DNA of 39,570 nucleotides, from contig JAUCBJ010001252.1 in assembly GCA_032718475.1 (NCBI GenBank), positions 1-39,570 on the forward strand. Direction: 5' to 3'. Position 1 is the stretch's first letter. Every line of letters begins with the position of its first letter. Shown one piece after another: positions 6,344 through 39,570 of this stretch. The notes below the pieces were generated by a model. That model did not search any database, was not told where the DNA came from, and worked only from the letters and a program-made list of their open reading frames with translations. The position numbers and the translations under genes were made by a program. Origin of the DNA: Nemertoderma westbladi (Eukaryota; Animalia; Xenacoelomorpha).

Positions 6344-10465
<4,122 letters not shown>

Positions 10466-10611
10466 CTAGGTTTCTCGTCAATCTTTAAATTATTAAGTAT
10501 TATATATATATAAACTACTTTTCAGTGAGGTGAAAAGTAATAGACCTAGGGGAAAATATCATATTTTGGAAACAATGGGTGAATTTTTTGGTCATATTTT
10601 AATATAATCCG

Positions 10612-10940
10612 CGTTACAGGTCAAAACGCACCTCGGTTAAAACGTACCCGATCAATAACGTACCCATATTTCGGGTATGTTTTAACTTCGGGACCCACAA
10701 CACATTATATTCATCCTAACAAAACTTGCTATAACCAATCAAATTCGTTAGTTCCGGAGATTTAAATGGAAAGGAGCAGGTTTCAGTGACGAATTAATCT
10801 ATTCAAAACAATAAATGAGAGTCAATTCAATAGCACAGGTTACAGTTTATTTTTCTTTTATAAAATTGTTAAAATACAATTGTTAAAACGTACACAGTAT
10901 TCGGGTACGTTTTAACCAGGGTACGTTTTCACTTGTTCCC
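10612..10940. mobile_element. Mutator-like MITE, copy 1
   Basis: Ends ACAGGTCAAAACGCACC..GGTACGTTTTCACTTGTTCCC with subterminal AAAACGTACCC repeats. Paralogous to 12448-12808. No TSD visible. Confidence 0.7.
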
Positions 10941-11725
10941 AAAAAAATGTTACTTTCTATTTGTAAAATAAATAGTTAGTATGCTATGTTTTATATTAAA
11001 CAGTTTGCCGCATAGTTTAAAAATTATAAAAAAAAGTAAAATTTTAGATTTAATTAACTGATTAATTATGCCTAATTTAATTAAACTATGAAAAATAATT
11101 TATTAATTACTCAGGATCAGGAAGCCCGTCGATATAGTGCGGTTAGCAGCATTCTTCTTACAATGTCACCATCATAACAACCAGTTGCTATGGAAGGTAA
11201 CACGACTCATAATATTAACCATTCGAAAGTGCATATGCATAGGCCTACTCATTATATAGGCAGACAGCCATTACGTTTATTACATCAAGCATTTAGACTG
11301 ATAGACAAGAAATTGAGGGAGTGAAAGAATACAAGATAGTAAATATATGATGATAATAGATGAGGTAAAGCAAATATGCTAAAATGGCATTCCGCTCTAC
11401 CTCAATGTCAATATCTAATCTTATGTGGAAAGGAGTAAGTTACAGTGGCAGCGTTTTCTAACCAAAACAATAAATGAATCTAGATTTCTTAATCAATGGA
11501 CAGACGGAAAGGAGCAGGCAGGTAGGTTACAGTGGCGAGCTTTTCTAACCAAAACAATAAACGATAACAGGATAACTCAATAACATCTATGTTACAGTCA
11601 TATGAAATACGAAAATACCAGAGGTGCGGATATGAACTGTACTATAGCTGTATAGGTTAATATACCGTCAACTGGGGGGGGGGGGGGGGGGGCATATCTG
11701 CATATGTACGCTTGTAGTTGTACGT

Positions 11726-12380
11726 CAGGCTGCAAACCACCACTGAACCGCGCACAACGCCTGCGCACAATTTTTCAGCCGCGCAATATCGGACAATATA
11801 CCGCGCATGCACCGAAAAAAACGCGCACACCACATTTTAACAATGTAAACGAAAAACATACGCGAGTGAAGCGAGCAAAACTTTTTCCATTAACATTGCA
11901 AAATGAAAAAGAAACGCGAGCAAAACTCAAAGTGAAGTGAGCGAAATTTTTTCATTCTAACAGTGCAAAATGAAAAAGAAACGCGATCAAAACTCAAAGT
12001 GAGCGAATTTTTTTCATTCTAACAGTGCAAAATGAAAAAGAAACGCGAGAAAAACTCAAAACAGCAAAGAGAGCGAAATTTTTTCATTCTTGACAGTGCA
12101 AAATGTAGAGAAACGCGAGCGAAGCGAGCGAAATTTTTTGTGGCAAATTATTTTTCTCACTTTGAATGCATGTAAACTTTTTTACGCCTCATCCACCTGT
12201 ACCCAGGTACCCCTGTACGCGCACTTTACGACTTTTGAACTTTTGCACAGAATACTGCGCACTTTTGTTGTCTTTCACATAATTTCGCGCACTTTTATTT
12301 CAATTCCGCGCACTTTTACCGCGCATTATTTCAAATACGCGCACAACGCGTTGCGATTTTTGCATTTCATTTGCAGCCTG
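11726..12380. mobile_element. hAT-like MITE with internal ~57-bp tandem repeats
   Basis: 11-bp TIR CAGGCTGCAAA..TTTGCAGCCTG, CGCGCAC subterminal motifs, tandem units at ~11850-12140. No clean TSD. Confidence 0.65.
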
Positions 12381-12447
12381 GGCTTGTACGATACATCTGT
12401 ACATGTTTTTGACCCTTCAGTCCAGTCATTTACTACAACATCGGAAC

Positions 12448-12808
12448 GGTAACAGGTCAAAACGTACCCGAACAATAACGTACCGATTTTCTGGTATACG
12501 TTTTAACTTAGACAACACATTATAGCAGTATACTGGTATAGTCATCCTAACAAAACTTGCTACAACCAATCAATATCGTTAGTTCCGGAGATTTTAAGGG
12601 AAAGGAGCAGGTTACAGTTACGAATTAATCTAACCAAAACAATAAACGAGTCAATAGCGCAGGTTACAGTTTATTTTTGCTATTTATTTTTGTACTACCA
12701 AAACTTAACTAACTGCCTAATGCATCATTGTTAAAACACCCAGTATTGGGTACGTTTTTGTTCGGGCATCGGGTACGTTTTAACCACGGTACGTTTTCAC
12801 TTGTTCCC
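12448..12808. mobile_element. Mutator-like MITE, copy 2, with 9-bp TSD
   Basis: TIR GGTAACAGGTCAAAACGTACC / GGTACGTTTTCACTTGTTCCC. CATCGGAAC is duplicated at 12439-12447 and 12809-12817; a 9-bp TSD with GG ends is typical of MULEs. Confidence 0.85.
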
Positions 12809-14249
12809 CATCGGAACATTTTAATTAAAAATTACTACGGCCTAAATTCTGAAATTCGAACCAATAAATAATATGGTTCGTTCACAAACCAGGAAAGTAA
12901 CACAGAAGTATGCAGATTACAGTAGGCCCTGCCTTATACTGTTATAATTGCACACAGCAGTATTGGATTGGAACGGAATGCCTTCCACATCCACATACTT
13001 CTGACTTAGGCCTATAGTCAGTTAGTTCAGTAGTTTGTAGTATTCAAGTTATAGCAGTATAGTCCTGTCAGTAGGGAACATACCCTTAAATAAGCTCCAA
13101 AAGTGGGTTCTTATTTAAGGAAAATGGCTCTTATTTAGGGGTTTTTGGGCCTTTTTTGGATATTTTTTCGATATAATATGCAATAACTTGTTTCAGGAAA
13201 AAATACCGCATAATTTTATTTCACAATGTAAAAGTTGGGTCTTTCTTGAACATAAAGCAAAAAACCAGAAAACATTTCACCGTCCGGTTTTTTTTCTACA
13301 AGCGTTTTAAAATTGCATCAAAAATACGACTAGTTCTTAAATAAGGGGGATTTTTTAAATTTACCTTATTTAAGATATCGAAATCGAAAATAAATACCAA
13401 AAGTCCCTAAATAAGAACTTTTTGACCTGGGTTTCTTATTTAGGAATACAATTGTATTCCAAAATCTGCACATTCCTTAAATAAAATAAATATTCCTTAT
13501 TCCTTACAGTATATGTTACACTTCTTTCATAATTCTTTGATTTATGTCAGTCTGAATATTGCTAATTGTTGTGTTAAGGATAAGGACAATGGTTGCACTG
13601 CACTCTATAAATCCTCTATAGAATATCGTATCATAACTGCATAATGAAGTTGCTAGCACTGGCATTCTTACCTCACACGGTAGCATAGAATAGCCCATTG
13701 ATATTCAAAAGAATAGCCCATCGCCCATCTAAGCTTACATCATTGTCACGTATTTCGATGAGACATGAGACATGACTCAAGTAACTGGACATCGCCGCAC
13801 AGTTTCGAAAAACTAACTTGTGTCCTGCATTTCCTCTTCTGTTCCGCGTTACGCCCCACTTAGATGGATTGTCCACAATGTTGTACTTGAAAGGTGTGAA
13901 AAAAAAAACCAATGTCAATGTCATGTCTCATGTCAATAGGCACAAAGATGGTTCCGTCCGGCAGCTGATAGCAGGATAGACGTTAGAAGGTTAAAGATGA
14001 TGACTGGGTGGCGTTTTTGGCCTAACTGACTCAGGCAGCAGTGGGACACGTTCGTGGGACCTTTACGCAGCGCAGCATGAAGTGAGCAAAGCCTTACCTA
14101 GCCCTAGCTGATAGGGGTCCCACCCCATTAACATGTTGTCTTTCGTTAGTCAGAGGTCGTTCAACACAATACTCGTCTCCTTAATTTGCCTCATTGCGTT
14201 AGTTTGTTTTTTACCAAACTTCAGATTATTTCTAATCTTTTGACAGACT

Positions 14250-14398
14250 ACATACCGGTACATACCAAGTTTCGTTTAATTTCATCAAGGAATGACCGAG
14301 TTATTACCGATAAAAAATTTACAACGACGACAGACAACTCGTTAATAGCACCCATATGCTAAGGTTTCGCTCACTTGAACGTGGCTCTCCCCCACATT
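14250..14398 (-). mobile_element. Helentron/DINE-like fragment nested in the TIR element
   Basis: TACCAAGTTTCGTTTAATTTCATCAAGGAATGACCGAGTTATTA core and GCTAAGG..CTCACTT..CGTGGCTC..CCCCACA end. Confidence 0.55.
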
Positions 14399-14414
14399 CA
14401 ATCCGGTTCGACGC

Positions 14415-15722
14415 AGTTTGTTGCTCGTTGTTGCTCATTGCTGCTCATTGTGCTTTATTATTTCTCATTGTTGGTCATTGTTGCTCGTTGTTGGTCATTG
14501 TTGCTTGTTGGTGCTCATTGTTGCCCGTTTGCCGTTAGTTGTACTTTATTATTGCTCGTTGTACTCTATTATTGCTCGTTGTGGCTCGTTGTTGTACTTT
14601 ATTATTGCTCGTTCAATCGTTGTTCCTCATTGTTGCTCGTTGTTTCTCGTTGTTGTACTTTATTATTGCTCATTGTTGCTCATTGATACTCGTTGTTCCT
14701 CATGTCCTAATTATTGGTCGTTGTTTCTCGTTGTTGCTCGTTGTTGTACTTTATTATTGCTCGTTCAGTCGTTGTTCCTCATTGTTGCTCGTTGTTTCTC
14801 GTTGTTGCTCATTGTTGCTCGTTGTTGTACTTTATTATTGCTCATTGTTGCTCATTATTACTCTTGTTACTCGTTGTTGCTCATTGTTGCTCGTTGTTGT
14901 ACTTTATTATTGCTCGTTCAGTTGTTGTTCCTCATTGTTGCTCGTTGTTTCTCGTTGTTGCTCATTGTTGCTCGTTGTTGTACTTTATTATTGCTCATTG
15001 TGCTCATTGTTACTCGTTGTTCCTCATGTCCTAATTATTGGTCGTTGTTTCTCGTTGTTGCTCGTTGTTGTACTTTATTATTGCTCGTTCAGTCGTTGTT
15101 CCTCATTGTTGCTCGTTGTTTCTCGTTGTTGCTCATTGTTGCTCGTTGTTGTACTTTATTATTGCTCATTGTTGCTCATTATTACTCTTGTTACTCGTTG
15201 TTGCTCATTGTTGCTCGTTGTTGTACTTTATTATTGCTCGTTCAGTTGTTGTTCCTCATTGTTGCTCATTGTTTCTCGTTGTTGCTCATTGTTGCTCGTT
15301 GTTGTACTTTATTATTGCTCAATGTTACTCGTTGTTGCTCATTGTTGCTCGTTGTTGCTCGTTCAGTCGTTGTTCTTCATTATTGCTCATTGTTGTTCGT
15401 TGTTTCTCGCTGTTGCTCATTGTTGCTCGTTGTTGTACTTTATTATTGCTCATTTTTGCTCGTTGTTGCTCATTGTTTCTCATTGTTTGTTGCTCAATGT
15501 TACTCGTAGTATTCGTAGTTCTGTAGTTGCTCATTGTTTGTCATTGTTGCTCTTTCAGTCGTTGTTCCTCATTATTGCTCGTTGTTGTACTTTAGTATTG
15601 CTCATTGTTGCTCAATGTTACTCGTTGTTGCTCGTTGTTACTCGTTGTTGCTCGTTGTTTTGTTACTCATTGTTCATTTGTTGCTCGTTGTTGCTTATTG
15701 TTGATCATTGTTGCTCGTTGTG
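14415..15722. repeat. Complex TTG-based satellite, (G/A)TTGTTGCTC-type units, with 324-bp higher-order duplication
   Basis: 9-10-bp units with GTACTTTATTATTGCTC variants. The block TTCCTCATGTCCTAATTATTGG recurs 324 bp apart (identical ORF starts at 14714 and 15038). Confidence 0.95.
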
Positions 15723-17026
15723 CATTTTTGCACCTATCAAATTAAGCTCAGAAGCTCCCTTATCTCGGCATCTTGCAATGTCCTGGAAAGGTTAGGCAGT
15801 TAGGAGGTCATAACTGTCATAAGCAGTTAAGGGCAGAAGGAGGACGGGGCTGGGAGACGAGGTTATAAGAGACATTATATAAGGATATTTAATTTAATTT
15901 ATTTAATTTAATATATGAGAAATGAGAAATATTTAATTTATTTAAGGAGTATGCAGATTTTGGAATGAAATTGTATACCTAAATATGAAACCCATGTCAA
16001 AAAGTTCTTATTTAAGGACTTTTAGTATTTATGTGTACAAATTCGATGTCTTAAATAAGGTAAATTTAAAAAATCCCTCTTATTTAGGAACTGGTCGTAT
16101 TTTTGATGCAATTTTAAAACGCTTGTAGAAAAAAAACCGGACGGTGAAATGTTTTCTGGTTTTTTGCATTATGTTCAAGAAAGACCCAACTTTTATATTG
16201 TGAAATAAAATTATGCGGTATTTTTACCTGAAACAAGTTCTTGCATATTATGTCGAAAAAATATCCAAAAAAGGCCCAAAAACCCCTAAATAAGAGCCAT
16301 TTTCCTTAAATAAGAACCCAGTTTTGGAGCTTATTTAAGGGTATGTTCCCTACTGCCTGTTGTCATTACTGCAATATGCAACTTCTGCTGTACCTGTGCA
16401 GCCTGTGTACTGTGCAGGTACAGAGGTACCGGTAGCAAGTTTATGCCTACTAAATAGTAAATTACCGGTACCGGTACCGGTAAGGTAGCTACTGCTTTAC
16501 TCCATACTCTGGCACTACAATTAATACCTGAATGTCGTAATGTTAGAATGAGAGTATTATTAGCAATAAAATGTTCTTTATAAACAGCTGCAGTTGAACG
16601 TTGTTCTACTGTAAGATTGGATTAACCAATGAACGACTTCCGTGTCATCAACTTGGCACTTGGCTTGGCTGGCGTTATCAGATATTCGTATATGCGTCAT
16701 AGTCAGTCCACCACCACATGTTCCCTACAACACACACTTTATAGCCAGCGTCATTGATTTGTCCCTTACCTGTAACTGCATGCCTAGAGATGGAATGCCA
16801 CACTCATGTAGATACATTATGAAGAATGGATTCGATGGATTCTATGTTTACCCAATTTACCATAGCTAACTGCAATCTGGCTATATGCATACATAATAAT
16901 GTATGCGATAATATGTATACGATAAGGCTTACTGTACTGAGTGCTGTCCGCAGTGCATTTATCATTATTTTTGTTACTGTACAGTGTATCTTTAGTATTT
17001 ATTTAGTGAAGTGAGAAGTGAAGGTT

Positions 17027-17974
17027 AACCAAATTAGTTCCAATCGCACATTTTCAAAGGCGAACTGAGTTCCCATTGAAACGAATTTAGTTCCAAAATA
17101 AATTTTACAAAGCGAACTTAGTTCCAATCGAGGTGAACTTAGTTCCAATCCTAGAATATCAAAACGAACTTAGTTCCAATGATTCCCCGTACTTGGTTCC
17201 AATTTAAGCCTCATGCGAATTTAGTTCCAATGGAAACGAATTTAGTTCCAATTTTGGCGAATTTAGTTCCAATTTAGGCGAACTTAGTTCCAATAACTAG
17301 AGAAAAGGAAAACGAATTTAGTTTCAATGCATGCGAATTTAGTTCCAATTGATGCGAATTTAGTTCCAATTGATGCGAATTTAGTTCCAATGGATGCAAA
17401 CTTAGTTCGAATGCAAGCGAATTTGGTTCCGATGTTTCATGTGTGGGGCGAGCCACGTAGTTGGCGAAGAATCTGTTTAAGGACACTATTAGGTGGATGG
17501 TTAAATAATAATTGTAAATAACTAACCCAAAACGCCTAATCTCCTAACCAAAACAATCTTATCCCAAACAACGCCCAACCTCTTAACCCAAACAATTCAA
17601 TTAAATTCATTTATATTTAATCATTTGAAATTATATTCATTGTAAAAAACAACGCCCATTGTCTTACCTCCTTGGTTAGGAGGTTAGGAGGTTGGGCGTT
17701 TTGGGTTAGTTATTTACAATTATTATTTAACCATCCACTTAATAGAGTCATTAAACACAGATTCTTCGCCAACTACGTGCCTCGCCCCACACCTGAAACA
17801 TTGGAACTAAATTCGCCAAAATTGGAACTACAGTAAATTCGTTTTCGTTTGTCTCTAGTTATTGGAACTAAGTTCGCCTAAATTGGAACTAAATTCGCCA
17901 AAATTGGAACTAAATTCGTTTCCATTGGAACTAAATTCGCATGAGGCTTAAATTGGAACTAAGTGCGGGGAATC
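17027..17974. mobile_element. Foldback-like element with arms made of ~21-bp tandem repeats
   Basis: CGAA(T/C)TTAGTTCCAAT units. ~17181-17550 is inverted relative to ~17672-17974, including the unique inner segment GTGTGGGGCGAGCCACGTAGTTGGCGAAGAATCTGT. Confidence 0.85.
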
Positions 17975-19368
17975 AATTGCATGAATTAATTATATTTATT
18001 TTACCCCTGATATTTCTTCCCACTTCTTAGATTATGACATGATTATTTGAATTAGGATTTGTGCCTGGTGACCAATAAAACCCTAACCCAAAATCAAAGT
18101 CTAACCCAAAATCGCCTACCAAAAACGTTGACTGCTTAACTGTTACTACAGTCCCGTAGTTAATCTATAGCCTCGTTTTTAAATTTTTAGTTAAATCTAA
18201 AAGAGGCTCAACATTCCCAGCATACTGTAAAATACCCATGAGTATCCGCGTTTCTGCCACACCTGTGGCGTTCGTAAAAAGTAGTACAATATTTGTTAAG
18301 ATTTGTGAAACTTTCGTCATTGATTATCGTTAGTCCGAATAATTTTCCAAATGCGTATACAGTATAGTATTGCATGTTATAATTCGCGATTCGAATTCAT
18401 GCGATTCGAATTCCACACCACGCAAAAATCACATCCGTGGTTTCTTTTGTTTGTGGTACATATGCGATAGAATGCAGGCAGCCCACAATAGTGGTGGTGA
18501 CCCCGCAATACGCATGTATTTTCAACTACATACAGGAATTCAGGTCAATCTCTACTCAGTAAACATTAGATTGTCCACTTTATCAGTGGCCTCTTTCACT
18601 CTCTTTGTTAATAGACAGTCAGGCACAAGACAATCACTCTTTGGCATTGGCGACGTTGCGAAAATATACCAGGGGAGTCTTAGCCTACTCCGGCAGAACC
18701 ATGTCTCACTCTATAGATACGACCAGGGAAACTCAACATACAGTAATAATAAATTAAGTATAATAATACTGTATAATTATATTAACTACTTTATACATAG
18801 TTTATATTTCCCACTGATAAAGTTCAAACTTTGACATACTGGTAGGCCTACAGTATTTTGGCAACTCGCCCTATAGTTCGGTAATATAAAGGTACTTTTT
18901 TGGGATGAAGATATTGCCTGGCCAGCATTTCTATTCAAGTCAATATTTATTTATAATTACTGTATTAAAACATTACCTTGGTTACTAAAAATTAATTATT
19001 GACTGACATGGAAACCAAACATGTATTTCCTTTGCTGAACTGAAATGTATAATTTGCCGAGCGAGCGAGCGTTCAGCTACCGAAGTTATAATTATTATAC
19101 ATCAAGGAAAAAAAAACAATTGTTTTCCACGTAATAGCCTTTTTTAAGTTCCACGTAATACAGTAATTACCTTTTCACCTCCCTTTATTGCTCCCCCATC
19201 TATATACCTTACAGTATTAAGGCAATTCAATTTTGTGGCTATCGCATAAAATAAATGCATGTGAAAATCAATTAATCATAAAATAACAAATATACCATCC
19301 ATATACAAATCATTGTCAACCTGATAACTAACACTCACAGTACGTCAGAGTATTGCCCTAATGGAGCA

Positions 19369-19932
19369 CTATTTATTTATTTTATCAGCAGGTACATGTT
19401 TGAGTAGGTATATGAGCTTGTCTAGAACTTGGAAAATGCCATCTCCTGATGTTCCACAAGTGGGCAGGACGTAAGTACCATTCGTGTTTGGGCAAGTATT
19501 TCAACCTCATTCCATTGGATACATCAACTGGGTTCATTGCATTCGGTAAATCCTGTTTGTTTGTTGTTATTACAAGCAGAACAGATTCCAATAGTTGATC
19601 TTCCTCCAATAGTATCATGAGTTCTTCCCCCGTCTCATCCACTCGCTTTCTGTCGCTACTATCAACGACAAATATTAACCCATGAATATTCCGGATAAAA
19701 TACCTCCATAAAGGTCTAAACTTCTTCTGACCACCAACATCCCACACTTTAATATTAATTATATTATTCTTATATTCTACAGTTTCACCACTAAGTCAAC
19801 GTTTGGAATGGCTGTTACATCTTCTCCATACTTTAACTTAGACAAAATGCTAGTCTTTCCAGCTACATCAAGACCCATCATTAATATCCTTATGTGCTTC
19901 TTTCGGGGGCGCGCTCCGAAAGTATTTCCCAT
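19369..19932 (-). pseudogene. ADP-ribosylation factor (ARF-family GTPase) pseudogene
   Basis: ATG 19932 [21 protein letters not shown]; frameshift near 19790; [32 protein letters not shown]; second frameshift near 19465 before [14 protein letters not shown]. Confidence 0.85.
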
Positions 19933-20380: not shown

Positions 20381-22194
20381 CAGGCCTAGCATTCTTAGTA
20401 GACGCTGCATTACAGCAAACAAATTGCATAGTGGTGGCGCACTATTTTTGTTAAACCAGCACAGCATCTCAATGTGCAGCTGTAATACAGGAGTCTAGGA
20501 GTCTAATTCTAATTAGATCAATGTTAATAAACAATTAAGGGAAAGGAGCAGGATACAATGGTAGGATATTCAAACTAAAACAATAAACGAAAGAAAAAAT
20601 AAACTTTGCTCCTGATCAGCTGTATGATTTGAGTCGAATTTTCCCTGGAGAGGGATGAATTCTAATTGCTTCAAGAGTCCCCCTACCCCCCCCCCCCCCC
20701 TCTGTAATTGTAACTATTAAATTTAACCTAAATTAAATTAAAGTCCATAATTTAGTAAAGCCCAGATAGATCAATTGTTAATTCAACAGGAATGTAATAA
20801 ATTAGCGTTTGCACGCACCGCACACCATTATATATATATTGGTAAACCCCATATACCCGGTAACTAATGATGGATTATAAATTCATTTATTACTCTCGGT
20901 TCAGACTAAATTCAATGAAAACGGATACAACTTTTAAGACCATTGTCTTGTCATATCATTATGCCCTTGTTCTCAATAAAAGAAACACTCAGCCATTCCG
21001 GTGTCAGAACATAAATTACACGTTCGTGGGGCCTTCGCGCAGCACGAGGCCCAGTTATGAGATACAAATTAAAATTGTGCGACTGTATCACAAAATCAGG
21101 TTATGAGAGATTAACCCACACCACCAATTAATCAAAGAAAGGGGGACAGTACGTGTTCACCCCTTTTAATCTGCACCCCCCCCCCCCCTCCCTTCCCACC
21201 CACCAATACATAACCGCGACATCTACCACCCACGGAAGGGTAGCACGAACTTATTTCCAAACGCACGTTCAATATGCAAAGCCAGGTGGTTTATAGGAAT
21301 ATAATCAATGCAGTACTCGTCTTCATTATAAGCCTCTTTGCGTTCGACCTGTTTTGTATTAAAATATATTTATTAAACGCAGGCTGACGCTCTTTATAAT
21401 AATAATACCTAGGGATGCCAGCTTCCAGACTTTCAATCTTTACTGCCGCGCAAACCCCGCAGAGGAAGTTTTGGTTTGAGAGATCAAGCCCATCGGCAAT
21501 TGGTGTTTCAATTTCGGTCCAGGAACTCTGACAATGGGAGCATTCAACCTTAGCTGTGGTCCATTCCCGTGGTTTCGGCTTCCTTTTCTTCGTCCCAATG
21601 ACAGATTCTTCTGAAGACGTTCGATTCGCTTTCAGTGTTTTGAAGTTGTATTCGAGTGGACAGTCGCGCCGGTTTCGAGGTAACCATACCGACCTGTGAT
21701 AAGCGTTGGTTTTGTTGAGTGCCGGTATTCATCTTCTCTCACCTCTTCAATGTCAGATGTTGCAAATACTGATAACACGAATAACGGTATATATTTCAAT
21801 ACTTGTCAATAGTAATATATATAATTTAGATAACTATTTTATATCTGTACTGTTGAGCAAACTCTACATAAATTCCAACCTTTGTATCGCCGGTAGTGCT
21901 GTTGCTGTGCAAGTGATGAAGTGCTAGTTGCCACCGGTCAGCCGGTACCGGTAGTAGGGTGGTACCATGGCCTACTACACACAGGCCATGACAAGGACTT
22001 TGCTGTGAAATTAGCGTAGGCTGACTGGTGACTGATGAATTATCAAATATTATATTTTCCACGAATGCAGGGTCCATATTTAAAAGAAGATGACTAGATT
22101 TTCGTAAAGTAATTTAATTGAAACAGTATTTAATAATTAATAAATTAATTAACGCTAGAGTTCCTGCAGCTTTTATTTGTTTGTGGCTGCCTCT

Positions 22195-22495
22195 GGCTAT
22201 GTTTGTGGCAGGAATGTTTGAACGCTTATAAGTCAGTCAATCAAGGATGAAATGGAACCAAACTTGGTACACATGTAGTCTATAAAAAATTTTGAAATTC
22301 TACACACAGACAGACTTCTACAGTTCCCCTGTCTGCCGCTAGGGGGCGAATTAACAGAAACTTAAAAATAGCTGTAATTATAGAACCAACGATCAGATTC
22401 ATCTGAAATTTAGTAGTAGTTACCTAAGAGCATTGCTTAATTAGAAATTCTACAGAGACTTTTACAGTTCCTGTCTGCCGCTAGTGGGGAATTGT
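22195..22495 (+). mobile_element. Helentron/DINE-like fragment (duplicated at ~25645-25940)
   Basis: GGATGAAATGGAACCAAACTTGGTACACATGT core plus two internal CAGTTCC..TGTCTGCCGCTAG units. Confidence 0.5.
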
Positions 22496-22607
22496 TAAAG
22501 CTCCAGTTCAACGTGCTTAGCACGGTTTAATAAACAATAAATTAATTATTTTATTCAATACAGTAATTATAACAGTAAAATGCAATGTATTCTATTTTTT
22601 AGTAAAA

Positions 22608-22876
22608 TCAAGAGACAGGAGGGGGGTGGGACTGGACGCAAATCCCATCTTGGCGAATTAATATCCCGCCTCAATATTAATTTCTCAATTTTGGGAAAGG
22701 AGCAGGTTACAGTGGCACGTTATTTTAACCAAAACAATAAAGTAAACACAATAGAACAGGTTACAGTTTTATTTTTGAGAGTAATCAGCTGTTGTTATTT
22801 GCGTCCAATTTCCCCTGGAGAGGGATTAATTTTTATTGCGTCCAGTCCCCCCCCCCCCCCCCCCCCCCTATCTTGA
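22608..22876. mobile_element. MITE with G/C-tract TIRs (duplicated at 26056-26321; relative near 20538-20700)
   Basis: TCAAGA..GGGACTGGACGCAA / TTGCGTCCAGTCC(C)nTATCTTGA. Confidence 0.65.
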
Positions 22877-23024
22877 AATCAAATACCAAAAATATATTTA
22901 TTATATGAACAATCTATTTGGAAATTGTAAGTTCGGCCTATCTCTTTACCATAAGCTCAGTATCTTTATCTGGTGTGTTTTTATTATTTTACCAATTATT
23001 TAATACGTTTGATAGAATTGAACA

Positions 23025-23659
23025 ACACCGCCCAACACAACCAACTCTCTATCCGCCTCGAGCTGTCGAGCATCGAGAATACGAGAAACTCGATCGAAAT
23101 ACCTGCTTATCCCAGTAGTATCCGTCCGTAGTCACCGGACCGCTGCGGTTTACTCCCGTAGAACAGTAGAATTCCCGCAGCTTTCGACCCAATTCGACAA
23201 CGAATTCGCTTCACACTTTCACGTCGCAGAGAACGTAATCCAGTGCGATACAAGTATGCCCGACGTTCAACCATTTCCCCCAGGCGATACCAGGATCCGG
23301 GCCGCCGCTAAACCCAGATCGCAATCCTCGTCGATTCGTCCAGTCGTCGACGTAAGTCAGTAAGTGGGACTCTTCCCACCGCACTCCAAGGTGGGTGACC
23401 GGAGTGAGGCATGAGGAACTTGGCAGTGGCCCGCATTACGATCTGACCGACCGCCGTATTCCCAGTGTCTGAGTGTAGTAAATACCCAAATAGAATCGTA
23501 CTGACAAACAAGCAATTCCGTAGCACTGCGTAGTATTCCCCCGTTAATCACCTCTTGAAGCAACTCGGCTGCTCGGGTCCAGATACATCGGACTGTCGGG
23601 AGCGTTTCAGACAGTAATGGCAGAATGGAGCGGCATTTGCGAATATTTCCAATGGTTTT
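23025..23659 (-). pseudogene. Aldehyde dehydrogenase family 3 (fatty aldehyde dehydrogenase-like) internal fragment
   Basis: After removing small insertions it reads KPLEIFANAAPLLSETLPMYLDPSCF..VINGG..ATELLVCQYDSIYYTGNTAVGQIVMRATAKFLTPVTLECGGKSPTYVDEDCDLGLAAARIAWGKWLNVGHTCIALDYVLCDVKV*SEFVVELGRKLREFYGSKPQRSGDYGRI, which includes the ALDH LE-GGKSP and catalytic Cys motifs. Confidence 0.92.
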
Positions 23660-24854
23660 ATAATAAATAAGGGGATTAAATGCTAAAACAAATGGATTAT
23701 TCCTAACCCCACCCCAATACAGCAGTATACCTAACAGTATATAGCTTGTACCACAGTACCATAATCTGATAATCAGCACAGTCAGCCTACGCTAATTTCA
23801 CAGCAAAGTCCTTGTCATGGCCTGTGTGTAGTAGGCCATGGGTGGTACCTACGGCAGTACGGTGCGCACTACAACTGACAACGGCAGTACAGCAATACGG
23901 CTGTACGGTGTACCGTGCCAATGCAGCAATGACTGAATGATTAGCGGTAACTATCTAAACTATTACTGTATTATATTATTATTACCGGTGCCGGTACTGG
24001 GCTAATTAGGCCTAAACTTTAATCACCGCAAGGGTTGCCGGGGTTAATTAGATTACATGATATGGCATGTCTGCAGTGTATGGTACCGGCTGACCAGTAT
24101 TGCAGTATTGACTGATTGCAGGATTCTCGATTCAGGGATTGAGTACAGCCTGACAGTACCGGTACACATGGTACATGCAGACAACCCCAATGTATTGCAA
24201 AATTTGTCAGAAAAACCAGCTGATTTATCCTACAGTAATAATAATTTAACGCATTTTAAATTTGGATAAATAAATTTATTATAACTGCAATAACAGTTAC
24301 ACTGATGCTGCACGAAGACCCCACGCAAATTCTACTTGGAAAATTTTCAAACTTTTGCCAAACAACATGTGTACCAAGTTTGGATAGATTTCATCAAGGA
24401 TTGGCCGAGTTATTAACGTTTAAAATAAAATACTGAAAAAAAACGCGACAGAACGACACGTTCGTGGGGCCTTCGCGCAGCACGAGGCCCAGTTATGAGA
24501 TACAAATTAAAATTGTGCGACTGTATCACAAAATCAGGTTATGAGAGATTAACCCACACCACAAATTAATCAAAGAAAGGGGGACAGTACGTGTTCACCC
24601 CTTTTAATCTGCACCCCCCCCCCCCCTCCCTTCCCACCCACCAATACATAAACTGCAACATCTACCACCCACGGAAGGGTAGCACGAACTTATTTCCAAA
24701 CGCACGTTCAATATGCAAAGCCAGGTGGTTTATAGGAATATAATCAATGCAGTACTCGTCTTCATTATAAGCCTCTTTGCGTTCGACCTGTTTTGTATTA
24801 AAATATATTTATTAAACGCAGGCTGACGCTCTTTATAATAATAATACCTAGGGA

Positions 24855-25188
24855 TGCCAGCTTCCAGACTTTCAATCTTTACTGCCGCGCAAACCCCGCA
24901 GAAGAAGTTTTGGTTTGAGAGATCAAGCCCATCGGCAATTGGTGTTTCAATTTCGGTCCAGGAACTCTGACAATGGGAGCATTCAATCTTAGCTGTGGTC
25001 CATTCCCGTGGTTTCGGCTTCCCTTTCTTCGTCCCAATGACAGATTCTTCTGAAGACGTTCGATTCGCTTTCAGTTTATTGTTGGCGTTTGTGTTTTGAA
25101 GTTGTATTCGAGTGGACAGTCGCGCCGGTTTCGAGGTAACCATACCGACCTGTGATAAGCGTTGGTTTTGTTGAGTGCCGGTATTCAT
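24855..25188 (-). other. Truncated Cys-rich ORF, possibly a LINE ORF1 PHD-like fragment (frameshifted copy at 21415-21732)
   Basis: ECSHC...FFCGVC pair of CxxC motifs followed by KIESLE; runs into a dispersed repeat. Confidence 0.35.
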
Positions 25189-26957
25189 CTTCTCTCACCT
25201 CTTCAATGTCAGATGTTGCAAATACTGATAACACGAATAACGGTATATATTTCAATACTTATCAATAGTAATATATATAATTTAGATAACTATTTTATAT
25301 CTGTACTGTTGAGCAAACTCTACATAAATTCCAACCTGTGTATCGCCGGTAGTGCTGTTGCTGTGCAAGTGCTGAAGTGCTAGTTGCCACCGGTCAGCCG
25401 GTACCGGTAGTAGGGTGGTACCATGGCCTACTACACACAGGCCATGACAAGGACGTTGCTGTGAAATTAGCGTAGGCTGACTGCTGAATTATCAAATATT
25501 ATATTTTCCACGAATGCAGGGTCCATATTTAAAAGAAGATGACTAGATTTTCGTAAGTAATTTAATTGAAACAGTATTTAATAATTAATTAATTAATTAT
25601 CGCTAGAGTTCCTGCAGCTTTTATTTGTTTGTGGCTGCCTCTGGCTATGTTTGTGGCAGGAATGTTTGAACGCTTATAAGTCAGTCAATCAAGGATGAAA
25701 TGGAACCAAACTTGGTACACATGTAGTCTATAAAAAATTTTGAAATTCTACACACAGACAGACTTCTACAGTTCCCCTGTCTGCCGCTAGGGGGCGAATT
25801 AACAGAAACTTAAAAATAGCTGTAATTATAGAACCAACGATCAGATTCATCTGAAATTTAGTAGTAGTTACCTAAGAGCATTGCTTAATTAGAAATTCTA
25901 CAGAGACTTTTACAGTTCCTGTCTGCCGCTAGTGGGGAATTGTTAAAGCTCCAGTTCAACGTGCTTAGCACGGTTTAATAAACAATAAATTAATTATTTT
26001 ATTCAATACAGTAATTATAACAGTAAAATGCAATGTATTCTATTTTTTAGTAAAATCAAGAGACAGGAGGGGGGTGGGACTGGACGCAAATCCCATCTTG
26101 GCGAATTAATATCCCGCCTCAATATTAATTTCTCAATTTTGGGAAAGGAGCAGGTTACAGTGGCACGTTATTTTAACCAAAACAATAAAGTAAACACAAT
26201 AGAACAGGTTACAGTTTTATTTTTGAGAGTAATCAGCTGTTGTTATTTGCGTCCAATTTCCCCTGGAGAGGGATTAATTTTTATTGCGTCCAGTCCCCCC
26301 CCCCCCCCCCCCCTATCTTGAAATCAAATACCAAAAATATATTTATTATATGAACAATCTATTTGGAAATTGTAAGTTCGGCCTATCTCTTTACCATAAG
26401 CTCAGTATCTTTATCTGGTGTGTTTTTATTATTTTACCAATTATTTAATACGTTTGATAGAATTGAACAACACCGCCCAACACAACCAACTCTCTATCCG
26501 CCTCGAGCTGTCGAGCATCGAGAATACGAGAAACTCGATCGAAATACCTGCTTATCCCAGTAGTATCCGTCCGTAGTCACCGGATTACATGATATGGCAT
26601 GTCTGCAGTGTATGGTACCGGCTGACCAGTATTGCAGTATTGACTGATTGCAGGATTCTCGATTCAGGGATTGAGTACAGCCTGACAGTACCGGTACACA
26701 TGGTACATGCAGACAACCCAGCTGATTTATCCTACAGTAATAATAATTTAACGCATTTTAAATTTGGATAAATAAATTTATTATAACTGCAATAACAGTT
26801 ACACTGATGCTGCACGAAGACCCCACGCAAATTCTACTTGGAAAATTTTCAAACTTTTGCCAAACAACATGTGTACCAAGTTTGGATAGATTTCATCAAG
26901 GATTGGCCGAGTTATTAACGTTTAAAATAAAATACTGAAAAAAAACGCGACAGAACG

Positions 26958-27073
26958 ACAGGTTGATTAATGGTACCCCTACGCTAAGGCTCACTCACTT
27001 CGTGGCTCGCCCCACAGGTTGATTAATGGTACCCCTACGCTAAGGCTCACTCACTTCGTGGCTCGCCCCACAG
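26958..27073. repeat. Exact 56-bp tandem duplication of a Helentron/DINE-like terminus
   Basis: ACAGGTTGATTAATGGTACCCCTACGCTAAGGCTCACTCACTTCGTGGCTCGCCCC occurs twice. Confidence 0.95.
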
Positions 27074-29846: not shown

Positions 29847-29941
29847 GGAAAGTACAGCGAGTTAGTTGTAAGCTGTCAATCTAAAGTACAAATAATTTGT
29901 ACTTTAGATTGACAGCTTACAACTAACTCGCTGTACTTTCC
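29847..29941. repeat. Perfect 95-bp palindrome (47-bp arms, 1-nt spacer)
   Basis: GGAAAGTACAGCGAG..GTACAAAT-A-ATTTGTAC..CTCGCTGTACTTTCC. Confidence 0.97.
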
Positions 29942-34117: not shown

Positions 34118-35569
34118 TCATACAGTTATATTGGCATAGAACTTATAAGCTTTCTCGTTAGTAAGCCGTATAGCCAAGCCTAGTTGAGTGCCAGCGCCGA
34201 CCTCGTAGGAGCGAGGGAACCCAACACGCGACCCACGGTCGTACAATCTGTGTAGGACGCCCTCCCACTGAACGGGACGGACAACACTGTCCAACAGCGA
34301 CCTACGGAAGTTACGGACCGAGTAGTTAACCGAGGGTTTAGTACCTACGATAACCCGACGTCGTCCGGGGTTACACCGCATCGTCTTGAGCAACGGGATT
34401 AGTTTCTCCGCAACGGGTTCCATCAGGGAGGTGTTGTATGCGCAGCGAACCGAGTTGATCCACCGACACCGCTCGATGTTCAACCGACGGGCGTCGCGTT
34501 TAATCGATCGCAACGCCTCGGTGTCGCCGCCTAGGATCCGCACGTCCGGGCAGAGTTTAGCGGCGACGGAACAACTTAGTTCCGTGGCCGATTCCGCCTC
34601 ACTACAGAGCTCTAGCCAACGTGTGTGGTGGTTGCCGTGGCAGCTGAGCAGCGCGGAAGGTCGCGCAGAGACACCCTTCTCCGACTGTTGACAGCGGATG
34701 TCTAGGAGTTTAAGAGCGTCGTTTAGAGAGAGAAGGTTCGCGAACACCAACGCGGACCACTCGCCGACTCCGAAGCCCGCGGTTGCCACGCAACCCGCCA
34801 CCGACTCGGGGCTCTCCGCCGAGAGTTTCTCTATGGCGGCGAGGTTGGTCACGAATACGGCTGCGGCGGCACAGAGCGGCGAGTCGAGCCGCTCCCGGGG
34901 GCCGTTGAGGCAGACCTCGAGGAGGTCGTAACCGAGGGCGGAAGAGGCGCGGTCGTACAACGGGAGGACCCCGGGGTACTGGAGGAGGCCGCGTCCCATC
35001 CCCGGGTACTGACTCCCCTCGCCTGGGAACATAAGGATAGAGAAGTTACTGGGATGGAGGCGCGGGGACTCCTCTTTGAACGCCTCTCGAGGAAACATCA
35101 TGTGTTCAGAGAGGAAGGGATGCTGGATGATCTCCTTGGGAGGAAGAGAGTTTAAATCGACGAGGTATTCCTCTACGAATCTCCGGTGTTTGTTGAGGAC
35201 TTTAAGGGATTCGCGTTCCTTTTCTTTGGCGAAGTTATTTGGGTTGATTAGCGGTCCGTGAGAGTAATCGGTGTGTGTGTGGGGGGACAATGGGCGCAGC
35301 GTGCGGGGTCTAGTTGTCGGGATTTTACCTGATTCTATGACATCTGTTTGGTTATGTAATGACACCGACGGATCTTCCATCACGCTTCCCATATGTTTAT
35401 CCCCGTTTGGACCCATTTTCTCCGGATTACTCGCCGGGTTTTCGGTTTCATCTCCGGTAGAATTCACTTCTCTCTTTACTCGATTATTACCAAGGATTCC
35501 ACGGGTATTTAGACTACGATTTAAATGAAGACATCGATGGTACTGGTACTGACAACGAAAGACAAACAT
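34118..35569 (-). CDS. MCAT: Mitochondrial malonyl-CoA:ACP transacylase homologue with substituted catalytic residues
   Basis: ATG 35569 with an Arg-rich presequence-like N-terminus; LMFPGEGSQYPGMG, LGYDLLEVCLNGP, CVATAGFGVGEW, AYNTSLMEP, VRPVQWE, FPRSYEVGAGTQL. Confidence 0.9.
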   Translation of the reverse strand: MFVFRCQYQYHRCLHLNRSLNTRGILGNNRVKREVNSTGDETENPASNPEKMGPNGDKHMGSVMEDPSVSLHNQTDVIESGKIPTTRPRTLRPLSPHTHTDYSHGPLINPNNFAKEKERESLKVLNKHRRFVEEYLVDLNSLPPKEIIQHPFLSEHMMFPREAFKEESPRLHPSNFSILMFPGEGSQYPGMGRGLLQYPGVLPLYDRASSALGYDLLEVCLNGPRERLDSPLCAAAAVFVTNLAAIEKLSAESPESVAGCVATAGFGVGEWSALVFANLLSLNDALKLLDIRCQQSEKGVSARPSALLSCHGNHHTRWLELCSEAESATELSCSVAAKLCPDVRILGGDTEALRSIKRDARRLNIERCRWINSVRCAYNTSLMEPVAEKLIPLLKTMRCNPGRRRVIVGTKPSVNYSVRNFRRSLLDSVVRPVQWEGVLHRLYDRGSRVGFPRSYEVGAGTQLGLAIRLTNEKAYKFYANITV

Positions 35570-37028
35570 ATTTCCGTATACATACAGACATACATACAAT
35601 GCGATGCAGTCATTCAGTCAACAATGCAGCCATGAGTTATCGTTGGTGCTTGATTGTGTGATGTCGTTTTGTTTTATCTGTCAAGAGTTTAGGCCTAATT
35701 CTGTAATTTATTGACTTAATACTGTAATACTGTAATACAGCTACAGCACTGCAGTAATAAATTATTACGGTATGCTGGTAAACCGCCGTACCGGTATGTC
35801 CAGATGTCTGTATTTTAATTACAGAATTAACAGACTGCAGACTGACAGCCGGTCAGCCGGTACGCTGATACGTGACCCCGTTCCCGTAGCGCAGTAGCGG
35901 TAGCCGGTAGCGGTAACGTACTACTGTACTAACGTACATCTGTCTGTCTGTACATAACGTCGACTAGGAAGTACTGTACTCAGTACTGAGGTGAGGCGTG
36001 AGGTACCGGTCTGCCAGTAGCTGACCTACCGGTAGTGCTGTCTGCTGGTCTGGCCTGCTGACTGTAGTCAGGTAGTGCTGTATTGTTTTGAACGAATCGA
36101 TAAAAACAGGATTGCCCTTTGGTGAATTCAAATTTCCCGCTTTAATGTGCAAATGGCATCGTTGAAGAGCATACCTGTTTTTAAAGAATCATTGACCAGT
36201 ATACTATAATTATTGTCTGTTCGAGAACGGAATATACGGATATTATAATACCTGAAGCAAATTAATATGTTTAACTACTGAGACCGTTAGGTCGAAGTAG
36301 TTAGTTATACATGATATATCTGCTGAAGGAAGGAATAGGTATTATAGCCATTCTCGATCAGACAATAATTAGTTTATCCCTTATAGTTAGTCGATGCTCA
36401 AAAACACCCACTGTCGTTTTGTTTCCAAATATATATTATTACAGACTTTCATATTTGAAGTTTCGACTCAAAAATCCCCTTACAGAGAAAACGAGAGGTT
36501 ATCTTCTAACCATTCGCATTGTTGTCCGCCTCCAATGCTACAGTTCGCCTCTCTCAGGCTACAGTATAAAGCAATAATAATTTGAAAATTCTTTATTTGG
36601 GCATACAATAATGCATCTCTATTTATTTTTCTTAGTGATTTTAATTTCACATTCTTACGAAAGCTTTGTACTACCTAATTTTGTAGTGACAAATTAACTA
36701 AACCCAAATAAAAAATATAAATGACAAGTTAGGGGGGGGGGGGGGGGTAGTACCCCCCTATTTTGGAAATTGACAAAAATGTGTTTTTTTATTCTATCTT
36801 GTGCCGAATTTAATGGAGATTTAAAATCTGCAAGCAGTATTATCATATCTTTTCTCAAACTCAAGTTATTATGCAAAACGTAAGAGCTAGTCTGATATTT
36901 GAAAAGCCTTCGAGCAGAACTATATTTTACAATACGGTGTACGATGTTTAGTAGCACAAAAAATAATTTTCACTCAATTTTATGGTCCAGAGACACAAAA
37001 ATGTGAGGTTCAATTTGGATACCCCCCC

Positions 37029-37200
37029 TTAATGCTTCTTAGAAGTTCGCCAGGTTTGAAGTCCACTGTTTCTATAGGTGTCGTATTGTCCTTGTCATAT
37101 ATTTTCCTTATAGGGCTGACCTCGATGGTTGGTGGCCGCCCAAGCAAGTTTCTGAAGTGATCTTTCCATGTCCCAACACGTTCTTCGGGACTATCAACTA
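37029..37200 (-). mobile_element. RTE-type LINE ORF2 fragment (pre-RT region)
   Basis: DSPEERVGTWKDHFRNLLGRPP..IETVDFKPGELLRSIK. Confidence 0.65.
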
Positions 37201-38315
37201 TTCGGAAAAAAAAATGATGTTTTAGCTAAAAACAAATTGTTTTTAGATGTGTATACTGTATGTTTGACCTATATTACATAAATAAACATTGTGGTGTTGT
37301 AGCCTTTAAAATCTAAGCCATCAAGCTCTTAGTACTAGCTTCCCAAATTATTGCCCATTTAGTGAATATTCACCATTGATCGAAATCCACCATGTTAGTG
37401 CTCAATGTCTGCGTTTCATAAACATAGATTGCCAAAGCCAACCCTGTATGGAGGTCCCGAGTATAGATGATAGAGCCGGCATAGTGCAGTAGTGTCAGGC
37501 GTATAATAATAGAAATTATATAGTCAAATGAGGTTGATATTAGATATCAGAAAATAGCCTTCAGATTTGGAATCTCCATTAAATTCGCCACACCACAGGA
37601 GGATATCATAAAAAAAGGATCCAAATTAGGGAGCTCTCCCCCGTCCTCCCTTAACTAAAACTAATAATCCACCACCAGCGAGGACCTCGCTTAGTTAGGA
37701 GTGTGCCCTCGGCCTCTGATTATGGTCCACCTCTGCCCCTCCCTTAGCAAATTCCCGGAACCGCCCCTGTGTTGTACATGGTCTATGTGAACGAACCCAT
37801 GACGTCACTACCGACATTTTCTAAGCTGATAGCTATAGGACAGGAGGGGTGTGGCTAGTCCTGTAGTCACACTTCCATTGATTAATACAATACCAAATAT
37901 GAAAAAAATGTAGTGTACCAAAGTTCATTATTAAATCAGTTACAGTATTACTGTTTTATTAGTAAGTAATCAGATAACAATTGGGCTTATTTCAGTTTGT
38001 TGTAAATGACATTTCGAATTAGGTACCTATTTATCTGAACTATGTACTTCTGGGCTAGCTGACTATATGCTCAGTAGCTAGCATAGCAGCATAGTCTAGC
38101 TCACATTCTTTGACGTCACCGCAGCTTAGCTTCAGTTTCACAGGTTGTATTTTGGGTTTGGTCTTGCTTTTGTCTCGTCTTGTCTTGTTCTGCAGTTATT
38201 AGTTGTTTTCATCAGTTTATTGCTCAGCATTTAAATTAAAGGTATCCCTATTTATTGCTATTTATTAGTTCTATTTTAGCTTAGCAAAATAATAATTCTT
38301 GGAGTGAAGTTGAAG

Positions 38316-39418
38316 ATGAATATTATTCAGCCTTATTGTGATTCTTGCGCTCGAACTGTAAACTTTCTCCAAGATCGTATTGAACATGCTTGCCGTGGAA
38401 TTCCTGCATGGAAGATCATAGTGATGACGTCGGCAGCTACCTACGCGGGAATGAAACTGCACAGACTGGCCACGGACAGCCACAAACCGATGTTGGTGAG
38501 ACTGAATCAATGGACGTTCAGAACAATCCGAAAACTCCCGATTATTGGAGCTAAGATAGATAAAAAAATCGACGATCAATTAGACCCGGTGAAAGAGGAT
38601 CTATTTACTATCCCAGATGGTTATTCATATATTATGAATTTACCGGAAGTTGGATGGGACAAAGAGCGAATATTCCAAGAGATGCGACATTACGATAAGA
38701 TGGAGGATATTGATTACGCGAATGGGAAGGCCTCCGGTTCGGTTTACTACTACGGGGAGGACACGCGTTCGATATACCGGGAGATTTACGGAAGTTATTC
38801 GCACGCGAACCCGCTCCACTGCGATATTTGGCCGAATGTTCGCAAAATGGAGGCGGAGTTAGTGCGGATGTGTTGCTCGCTGTTCGGCGGAGACCAATCG
38901 ACCTGCGGTAACACGACTTCCGGGGGCACCGAGTCCATATTGATGGCGATGCGAGCCTATCGCACGCGAGCGCAGCAGACGAAGGGGGTTCGCTACCCGG
39001 AGATTGTGGGTGGGGTTTCCATACACGCCGCTTTCGATAAAGCGGCTGATTACTTCCAGATGCGACTGCGTCACGTCTCTGTTGACTCGGAAACACGCAA
39101 GGTTGATGTAGCCGCTATGGAGCGAGCCATAAACCGGAACACAGCTGTTCTAGTAGCGAGCGCGCCTAGTTTCCCGCACGGCGCGTTAGATGACGTCGCA
39201 GCTGTGGCTAGACTGGGTATTAAGTACGGCATCCCGGTTCACGTAGACTGCTGTCTGGGCGGGTTTATTGTCCCGTTTATGGGCGACGCTGGGTTTCCGG
39301 TGCCCGCTTTCGACTTCCGGGTACCCGGGGTCACTTCCATCTCGGCAGACACCCACAAGTACGGCTTCAGTCCGAAAGGGACCTCGGTTATTATGTACCG
39401 GAACCGATCCTACAGGAG
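38316..39418 (+). CDS. SGPL1: Sphingosine-1-phosphate lyase, first coding exon (gene continues beyond the window)
   Basis: ATG 38316; GKASGSVY, ANPLH, TSGGTESILMA, HAAFDKAA, HVDCCLGGF, PLP-lysine motif SADTHKYG. Probable splice donor AG|GTTAGT at 39419, followed by AT-rich sequence. Confidence 0.95.
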
Positions 39419-39570
39419 GTTAGTGGTTACCCGTCTAGGGAATAATAATAGGCAGAAAGTCCCATTCTATTTATTTATTAATAACAATTATATTTCGCTT
39501 GACAGACCAAAAATTTAATGAATTTAAAGATTTGTACACAATCATCAAACATAAACGACATATTAACTTT

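Follow-up and report, generated by a model that had tools for sequence, protein, structure and literature searches.

Introduction

During Sleeping Beauty excision the non-transferred strand is cut a few bases within the element; once the ends are joined, CAG or CTG remains between the two copies of TA (PMC6943129, PMC8151067). The canonical footprint of Sleeping Beauty and of Tc1/mariner elements is TACAGTA or TACTGTA (PMC6943129, PMC8151067, PMC4378557). The window analysed here, by which we mean the whole stretch of 39,570 nucleotides, contains numerous insertions ("scars") in which CAG or CTG separates the two copies of a five-base duplication. These scars resemble the Sleeping Beauty and Tc1/mariner footprint in leaving the three terminal bases CAG or CTG between copies of the target, in having shorter variants and in causing frameshifts in exons. 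They also agree with the description of Tc1/mariner footprints in PMC6943129 as the terminal 2–4 nucleotides of the element, CAG and CTG being the ends of an element described below. They differ in that the duplication is of five varied bases (45 kinds in 55 scars) rather than TA, and the net gain is 8 nucleotides rather than 5. Membership of Tc1/mariner by TA target duplication was rejected: flank matches peak at five bases, with no overall excess at two, and the element itself is flanked by CCTGT.

Five-base target duplications are described for other groups. They occur in hAT5, which has been found in invertebrates (PMC12730594, PMC9004415), and the CAG end has the G at terminal position 3 that is given for hATs in PMC1131882. 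The hAT footprints described in PMC8151067 are variable and arise through a hairpin on the flank, whereas the scars are constant and element-derived. Flank-hairpin excision, as in hATs, Transib and MULEs, would explain only 3 of the 55 spacers and was rejected, on a criterion shown for hATs other than hAT5 itself. For hAT5 footprints or ends we found no published account with which to compare. Transib and RAG also duplicate five bases, but the ends that PMC1131882 gives for Transib are CACAATG-like, with GC-rich targets and flank hairpins; here the end is CAGTAGG and the targets lean to T and A (T-A-N-T-A), and Transib was rejected on both heptamer and target. In Ginger2/TDD, TDD-4 and TDD-5 make 5-bp duplications, but the ends reported in PMC2836005 are TGTNR, which our element does not have, and the animal members make 4-bp duplications; this group was rejected as well. 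A search of open-access papers found no report of CAG/CTG footprints between free five-base duplications.

The scar unites traits that the cited papers assign to separate superfamilies: terminal-base footprints (Tc1/mariner, with TA) and 5-bp duplications (hAT5 and Transib, with flank hairpins). Footprints make excision chemistry readable from DNA alone, and the transposase, once known, would either define a further lineage or require a revision of hAT chemistry. Chance very seldom produces a 13-letter scar whose 5-bp duplication is free, in contrast to TA-CAG-TA, and past excisions can therefore be counted and mapped one by one. The share and location of small-indel variation that is due to transposon excision becomes directly testable in a natural animal genome.

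Results and Discussion

Scars in and beside an ALDH3 fragment

The original prediction described a gene fragment at 23025–23659 interrupted by twelve motifs, each a five-base duplication around a short spacer. All twelve were found where it had placed them. The 635-bp stretch has seven exact N5-CAG/CTG-N5 matches, compared with a mean of 0.011 and a maximum of 1 in 1000 dinucleotide shuffles. A scar at 23519, with spacer CACTG, is additional to that list. The features are as follows (the scars are not assigned a strand):

23017–23734, minus strand: dead class 3 aldehyde dehydrogenase (ALDH3) fragment in a high-copy repeat, about profile positions 113–310
23058–23077: canonical CTG scar (8 nt), then CA scar (7 nt) in the same target; the 8 nt at 23058 are absent in runs X1, X3 and X5
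23108–23123: scar whose spacer CAGTAG is identical to the initial 6 nt of the 3.3-kb element
23159–23171: canonical CAG scar; cost of leaving it in the profile test, 19.6
23286–23298: canonical CAG scar; a parent-like contig is 8 nt shorter across the stretch containing it
23328–23365: GAT-spaced 5-bp duplication (GAT is not an element end), then CAG scars at 23336 and 23353
23405–23416: trimmed CA scar (7 nt); cost of leaving it in, 12.5
23464–23492: canonical CTG scar at 23464 and CCC-spaced 5-bp duplication at 23480
23519–23533: CACTG-spaced scar (CA plus CTG, 10 nt); the 10 nt are absent in all four runs compared
23564–23628: three CAG/CTG scars, at 23564, 23588 (one mismatch) and 23616; 8 nt are absent at 23616 in X1, X3 and X4
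23749–24175: the scar field extends upstream of the fragment, with eight scars of exact canonical form and variants with TG, G and CATG spacers

Individual sites depart from the canonical form. GATAC-CAG-GATCC (23286) is imperfect in the window, and its duplication is perfect in most other copies (23289 A>C). The site at 23108 can alternatively be read as a CAG scar plus a 3-nt slip. In AAATA-CCC-AAATA (23480) the spacer does not derive from the element ends. There is a plain duplication at 23390, and a few such duplications occur in the fragment.

The fragment shows colinear similarity to ALDH3 proteins. Its frame at 23214–23435 (minus strand) matches class 3 ALDH chains in the PDB (E 3e-5), and a Pfam search of its raw frames gave no match. 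No intron is present over profile positions 134–310.

The scars are true insertions

Scars were deleted in silico and the fragment was scored with a frameshift-tolerant ALDH3 profile built from nine bacterial plasmid ALDH3-like proteins. The score rose from 135 for the raw sequence to 229 when the 13 scars of the original list were deleted, and was 219 when 23519 was deleted too; 300 random control sets peaked at 159 and 200 shifted sets at 171. Removal of the scars therefore does restore colinearity with ALDH3, as had been claimed. In leave-one-out tests 10 of the 13 helped singly, 23588 and 23616 were neutral, and deleting 23564 lowered the score; the likely reason is that small indels nearby bring the sequence back into frame. 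With an optimised choice of 15 deletions, a single frame covered profile positions 134–310 and scored 155 bits versus 31 raw, with three stops left; this set is a greedy choice among 27 candidates, omits 23066 and 23564, and is not an unbiased test.

Independent evidence comes from contigs of the four runs, compared over 22900–24330, which contain other copies without the scars, exact to the base. Among the 12 of 68 indels listed for other copies, nine are multi-base deletions, and each removes one copy of the duplication plus the spacer: six are 8-nt CAG/CTG deletions, one CACTG, one TG and one G.

23058, 23616, 23761, 23896, 23919 and 23961: exact absences of 8 nt in other copies
23519 (10 nt, CACTG), 23871 (7 nt, TG) and 23985 (6 nt, G): exact absences of variant scars in other copies

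A parent-like contig, whose depth is that of a single copy in X1 (20) and X3 (2.8) and is 2585 in X4, represents a working ALDH3 gene, because all six diagnostic sites (among the 40 of 101 differences from the window listed) are synonymous third positions. Over 23166–23330 (165 positions) 23 letters and a single 8-nt gap separate it from the window; the shortfall of 8 nt falls within 23188–23330, the stretch that spans the scar at 23286, where the gap would lie. The parental comparison that the original prediction named as a possible refutation does not refute it, the contig being without at least one scar. A word search for the parent ALDH3 protein found it in none of nine candidates, and a representative search gave five unrelated repeat-like matches.

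The region is a high-copy repeat and locally duplicated, circumstances that would suit an assembly or sequencing artefact. Forms with and without scars, however, both occur in contigs of independent runs, where the X5 contig matches 23271–23611 with one differing letter and a 10-nt gap only, and intact ORFs of the same window are nearly scar-free. The independent contigs rule an artefact out, and we give it practically no credence. We conclude that the scars are true insertions.

Window-wide statistics

The original prediction had proposed a comparison of trinucleotide spacers and flank lengths. Run on the window, this comparison shows CAG and CTG to be far commoner than other spacers between 5-bp duplications. 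After masking of tandem arrays, of one terminal inverted repeat and of the second member of a local duplication, exact 5-bp flanks occur at 58 of 863 CAG/CTG sites (29 + 29) versus 0.6% of other trinucleotides, an 11-fold excess. The excess is at five bases only: ratios for flank lengths 1–4 and 6 are 0.7–1.2, and lengths 7–9 give zero matches. A stricter count, in which homopolymers and the microsatellite at 1–40 were additionally masked, gives 55 of 851 sites versus 3.3 expected (P 7e-47), or an excess of approximately 52 scars in 29.2 kb (1.8 per kb). Twenty unrelated viral, plasmid and metagenome loci, used as a negative control, have 5-bp flanks at 3 of 2527 CAG/CTG sites.

Among 3-nt spacers the enrichment is confined to CAG and CTG, whose 29:29 balance follows from strand symmetry and so is no evidence for mismatch repair. 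The shorter spacers CA and TG are weakly enriched across the window (24 sites, 1.8-fold). The 4-nt spacers CAGT (0 of 148) and ACTG (1 of 149) are not in excess between 5-bp flanks in the window, which points to exactly three terminal bases. The spacer is independent of the flank, since the 55 scars comprise 45 distinct duplications and only 3 of the 55 spacers could be explained by a flank-derived palindrome and 4 by a plain 8-nt tandem. The targets lean to T-A-N-T-A, with TA at either end in 26 of 55 scars (background 17%).

These figures bear on other possible origins of the scars in decaying DNA, namely slippage during replication, short tandem duplications or chance. The few plain duplications (23390, and those with GAT and CCC spacers) are of the kind that slippage would give. 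Slippage copies existing bases, yet the spacer is unrepeated in 51 of 55 scars, and neither slippage nor chance accounts for a five-base excess of this significance with other flank lengths not enriched. Such processes may explain single atypical sites; for the CAG/CTG class they are ruled out, and as an overall explanation we consider them highly improbable.

A 3.3-kb element with CAG...CTG ends

A candidate source lies 10 kb from the ALDH3 fragment:

13069–16355, no strand assigned: non-autonomous 3287-bp DNA transposon with ends CAG...CTG, candidate source family of the scars
13069–13504, plus strand: left terminal inverted repeat of approximately 436 bp, 93% identical to its right counterpart and containing a 10-bp motif eight times
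15918–16355, minus strand: right terminal inverted repeat
13064–13068, plus strand: left copy of the 5-bp target duplication CCTGT; the right copy is at 16356–16360

The ends are CAGTAGGG...CCCTACTG, the left one beginning CAGTAGG, and the interior includes a 10-bp tandem array. A search of 13069–16355 for a transposase ORF found none; the element is non-coding and, having no transposase, was placed in no superfamily. In a search of the window for inverted ends with flanking duplications, it was the only 15/15 terminal pair with a 5-bp duplication. Other inverted-repeat elements lie at 10635–10940, 12455–12808, 17180–17975 and 36800–37592, none with CAG ends and a 5-bp duplication. A pattern scan with the terminal inverted repeat gave four short matches in viral contigs, with no further similarity to the repeat; in metagenome contigs the 26-mer gave none and a looser pattern seven, none with similarity to the repeat or a partner end.

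Depth rises from 15–25 to thousands in the bins containing each element end (X1 and X3), and over the element is hundreds of times that of the flanks. X3 has both element junctions without difference from the window, and X1 and X4 have a haplotype that skips the element; X5 has no contig on it, which may be a filter effect. The 13069–16355 element therefore has terminal inverted repeats, a target duplication, many copies, insertion polymorphism and no transposase, as expected of a non-autonomous DNA transposon. The element-free joint (X1 and X4) has 23 letters, compared with 9 for a clean empty site and 17 for a canonical footprint, expectations that assume the neighbouring scar to be shared. 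It fits neither, so polymorphism is proven and excision is not. The element carries polymorphic scars of its own (13632). The element-free haplotype also shows 16 gap letters in 12800–13054 and 17 in 16356–16700, hinting at allelic scar differences in single-copy DNA.

The original reading of the insertions as transposon excision footprints is supported at two points: the insertions are real, and the window holds an element with the predicted CAG...CTG ends and 5-bp duplication. The insertions have a fixed form and are missing from other copies; they agree with the element in end sequence and in duplication length. We therefore consider it probable, with good confidence, that the eight-base insertions are excision footprints of cut-and-paste transposons with CAG...CTG ends and a 5-bp target duplication, such as 13069–16355; excision itself we infer from the sequences. 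As counter-points, one full element is seen in the window, its duplication CCTGT is without the TA bias of 26 of 55 scars, and two of the fragment's 5-bp duplications have the spacers GAT and CCC.

A host process independent of transposons, in which a nuclease makes breaks with a 5-nt stagger and repair adds a fixed CAG/CTG filler, would make the nearby element a coincidence. It fits the finding that no transposase is seen and that scars outnumber visible elements in the window by about 50 to 1. Against it, the window contains a high-copy, polymorphic element that matches exactly in both end and duplication length, and the variant spacers each consist of a left-end prefix followed by a right-end suffix. 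We know of no repair pathway that adds a fixed trinucleotide, and regard this explanation as very unlikely.

A possible mechanism

In the excision model, insertion by a putative transposase would be staggered by 5 bp and weakly favour T-A-N-T-A. On excision, cleavage of one strand would fall 3 nt in from each end, as in Sleeping Beauty, giving a CAG 3' overhang on both flanks. In end joining these overhangs would pair with an A:A mismatch between them, whose repair to CAG or CTG would give a net gain of 8 nt. Trimming or fill-in of the overhangs may produce the rarer spacers G, CA, TG, CATG and CACTG, all of which are left-end prefixes joined to right-end suffixes, as expected from trimming two 3-nt overhangs. 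Selection would purge the resulting frameshifts from working genes, and scars would pile up in introns, upstream regions and repeats. A cleavage of Sleeping Beauty type combined with a 5-bp insertion stagger yields the observed scar; the cleavage chemistry is deduced from the scar because no transposase was found.

The same elements might instead be moved by an ordinary hAT5 or other flank-hairpin enzyme, the terminal bases coming from gap repair that starts to copy the element from a sister or homolog still carrying it and is then interrupted. The 5-bp duplication that defines hAT5 (PMC12730594, PMC9004415) and the G at position 3 of hAT ends (PMC1131882) both fit the element, and the scar at 23108 has 6 terminal nucleotides, as copying back could give. 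Copying back should also give a spread of lengths, whereas CAGT and ACTG are found at 0 of 148 and 1 of 149 sites compared with 55 of 851 for the 3-nt spacers. The flank hairpins and variable footprints that PMC8151067 describes for hAT excision likewise sit poorly with scars of which only 3 of 55 fit flank-derived bases. We regard this route as unlikely, although less so than a host process.

Returning to the excision model, the scar is a known type of terminal-base footprint with a five-base duplication, and there is a fair chance that it marks an undescribed transposase lineage. More tentatively, and with confidence somewhat short of even, we propose that this animal hosts an undescribed cut-and-paste lineage that combines excision of the Tc1/mariner type, with cuts 3 nt within its CAG ends, and a five-base target stagger almost independent of sequence, or else that a hAT5 has abandoned the flank hairpin. 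On this proposal the footprints, about 1.8 per kb in the window, would lead frameshifting insertions genome-wide and would record past transposition in countable, allele-resolved form 5' of active genes.

The repeat that carries the fragment

Pack-type and Helentron-type repeats carry captured gene pieces. The ALDH3 fragment is similar in being a piece of a host gene inside a high-copy repeat. Summed contig depth over the fragment is 15,000–93,000 in X1 versus 21–33 on single-copy flanks, a figure that is not an exact copy number.

The original prediction regarded the scars as the decay of a gene fragment. The scars are real, but because the fragment rides in a high-copy repeat they would have accumulated in the repeat lineage rather than at one decaying locus. 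Some are common to the near-identical X5 contig and others vary between copies, a mixed sharing that fits master copies acquiring scars in turn. The ALDH3 piece may have been captured into the repeat, whose master copies would have gained scars serially and passed them on, to a density of one per approximately 45 bp. The further claim that scars are a major mode of decay holds for indels and loss of frame, but not for substitutions, which outnumber the scars.

The composite repeat forms a tandem pair in 21018–26964 (21018–24462 and 24456–26964, 98% alike), of which the second, truncated copy, 24456–26964, is without about 23140–24050. A 63-bp perfect inverted repeat (21965–22027 and 23779–23841) flanks the ALDH fragment, with no clear duplication; a search for its extension into long terminal inverted repeats found none. 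The composite repeat also contains an ORF at 21294–21728 that is zinc-finger-like, with two CxxC pairs, and gave no convincing family against Pfam and the Atlas. Small repeats dispersed at 1–162, 14228–14392, 24307–24490 and 26809–27073 have short inverted ends plus a microsatellite tail, and presumably resemble Helentron-associated elements.

Distribution of scars in the window

Within ORFs, 2 of 117 CAG/CTG sites are scarred versus 53 of 739 elsewhere (P 0.024). One of these two is upstream of the first ATG, and there is none in the polyubiquitin coding sequence. The scars are clustered, with a median neighbour distance of 80 bp versus a simulated mean of 174 and minimum of 78 (500 simulations). 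They concentrate upstream of a FabD-like gene, in what is probably polyubiquitin's first intron, and both within the ALDH piece and upstream of it. Features outside the ALDH3 region, none assigned a strand, are:

11053–13062: 11 canonical scars to the left of the 3.3-kb element, in the putative polyubiquitin 5' intron, with one further at 16416
35580–36076: scar cluster immediately upstream of the FabD-like gene (first ATG 35569)
29855–29933: 79-bp perfect hairpin MITE with the arrangement TA, CAG...CTG, TA, candidate source of classical TA-CAG/CTG-TA scars

Open-chromatin preference or local hopping could underlie the clustering; the accounts in PMC2753552 and PMC4378557 describe both at far larger scales. 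Outside the 5-bp scars, TA-CAG/CTG-TA occurs 29 times versus 8.8 expected, about a 3-fold excess window-wide. Given these TA-type scars and the TA-flanked, CAG-ended MITE, two CAG-ended families seem to be active.

Genes in the window

The window contains genes for a P450, polyubiquitin, a broken ARF, DUF4618, a FabD-like protein and sphingosine-1-phosphate lyase. The ARF gene at 19385–19925 (Pfam Arf, E 5e-31) is frameshifted and has zero five-base CAG/CTG scars. The 18-unit polyubiquitin gene (6344–10465, minus strand) has a probable 5' intron of approximately 6 kb at 10546–16525, which contains the 3.3-kb element and 12 flanking scars. A contig of X4 joins 16526 to 10514–10543, with GT and AG at the ends of the skipped stretch. 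X4 looks like RNA, because this contig is joined across the GT-AG intron and copy number in the run stays level across the terminal inverted repeats.

The window is DNA of a divergent, intron-poor animal. Its sphingosine-1-phosphate lyase shares 45–53% identity with proteins of molluscs and vertebrates, and the 120 matches listed include no close relative. Long coding stretches without introns are present in this repeat-rich animal genome, namely the P450 (2326–3739), the FabD-like gene (34118–35569) and sphingosine-1-phosphate lyase (38316–39430).
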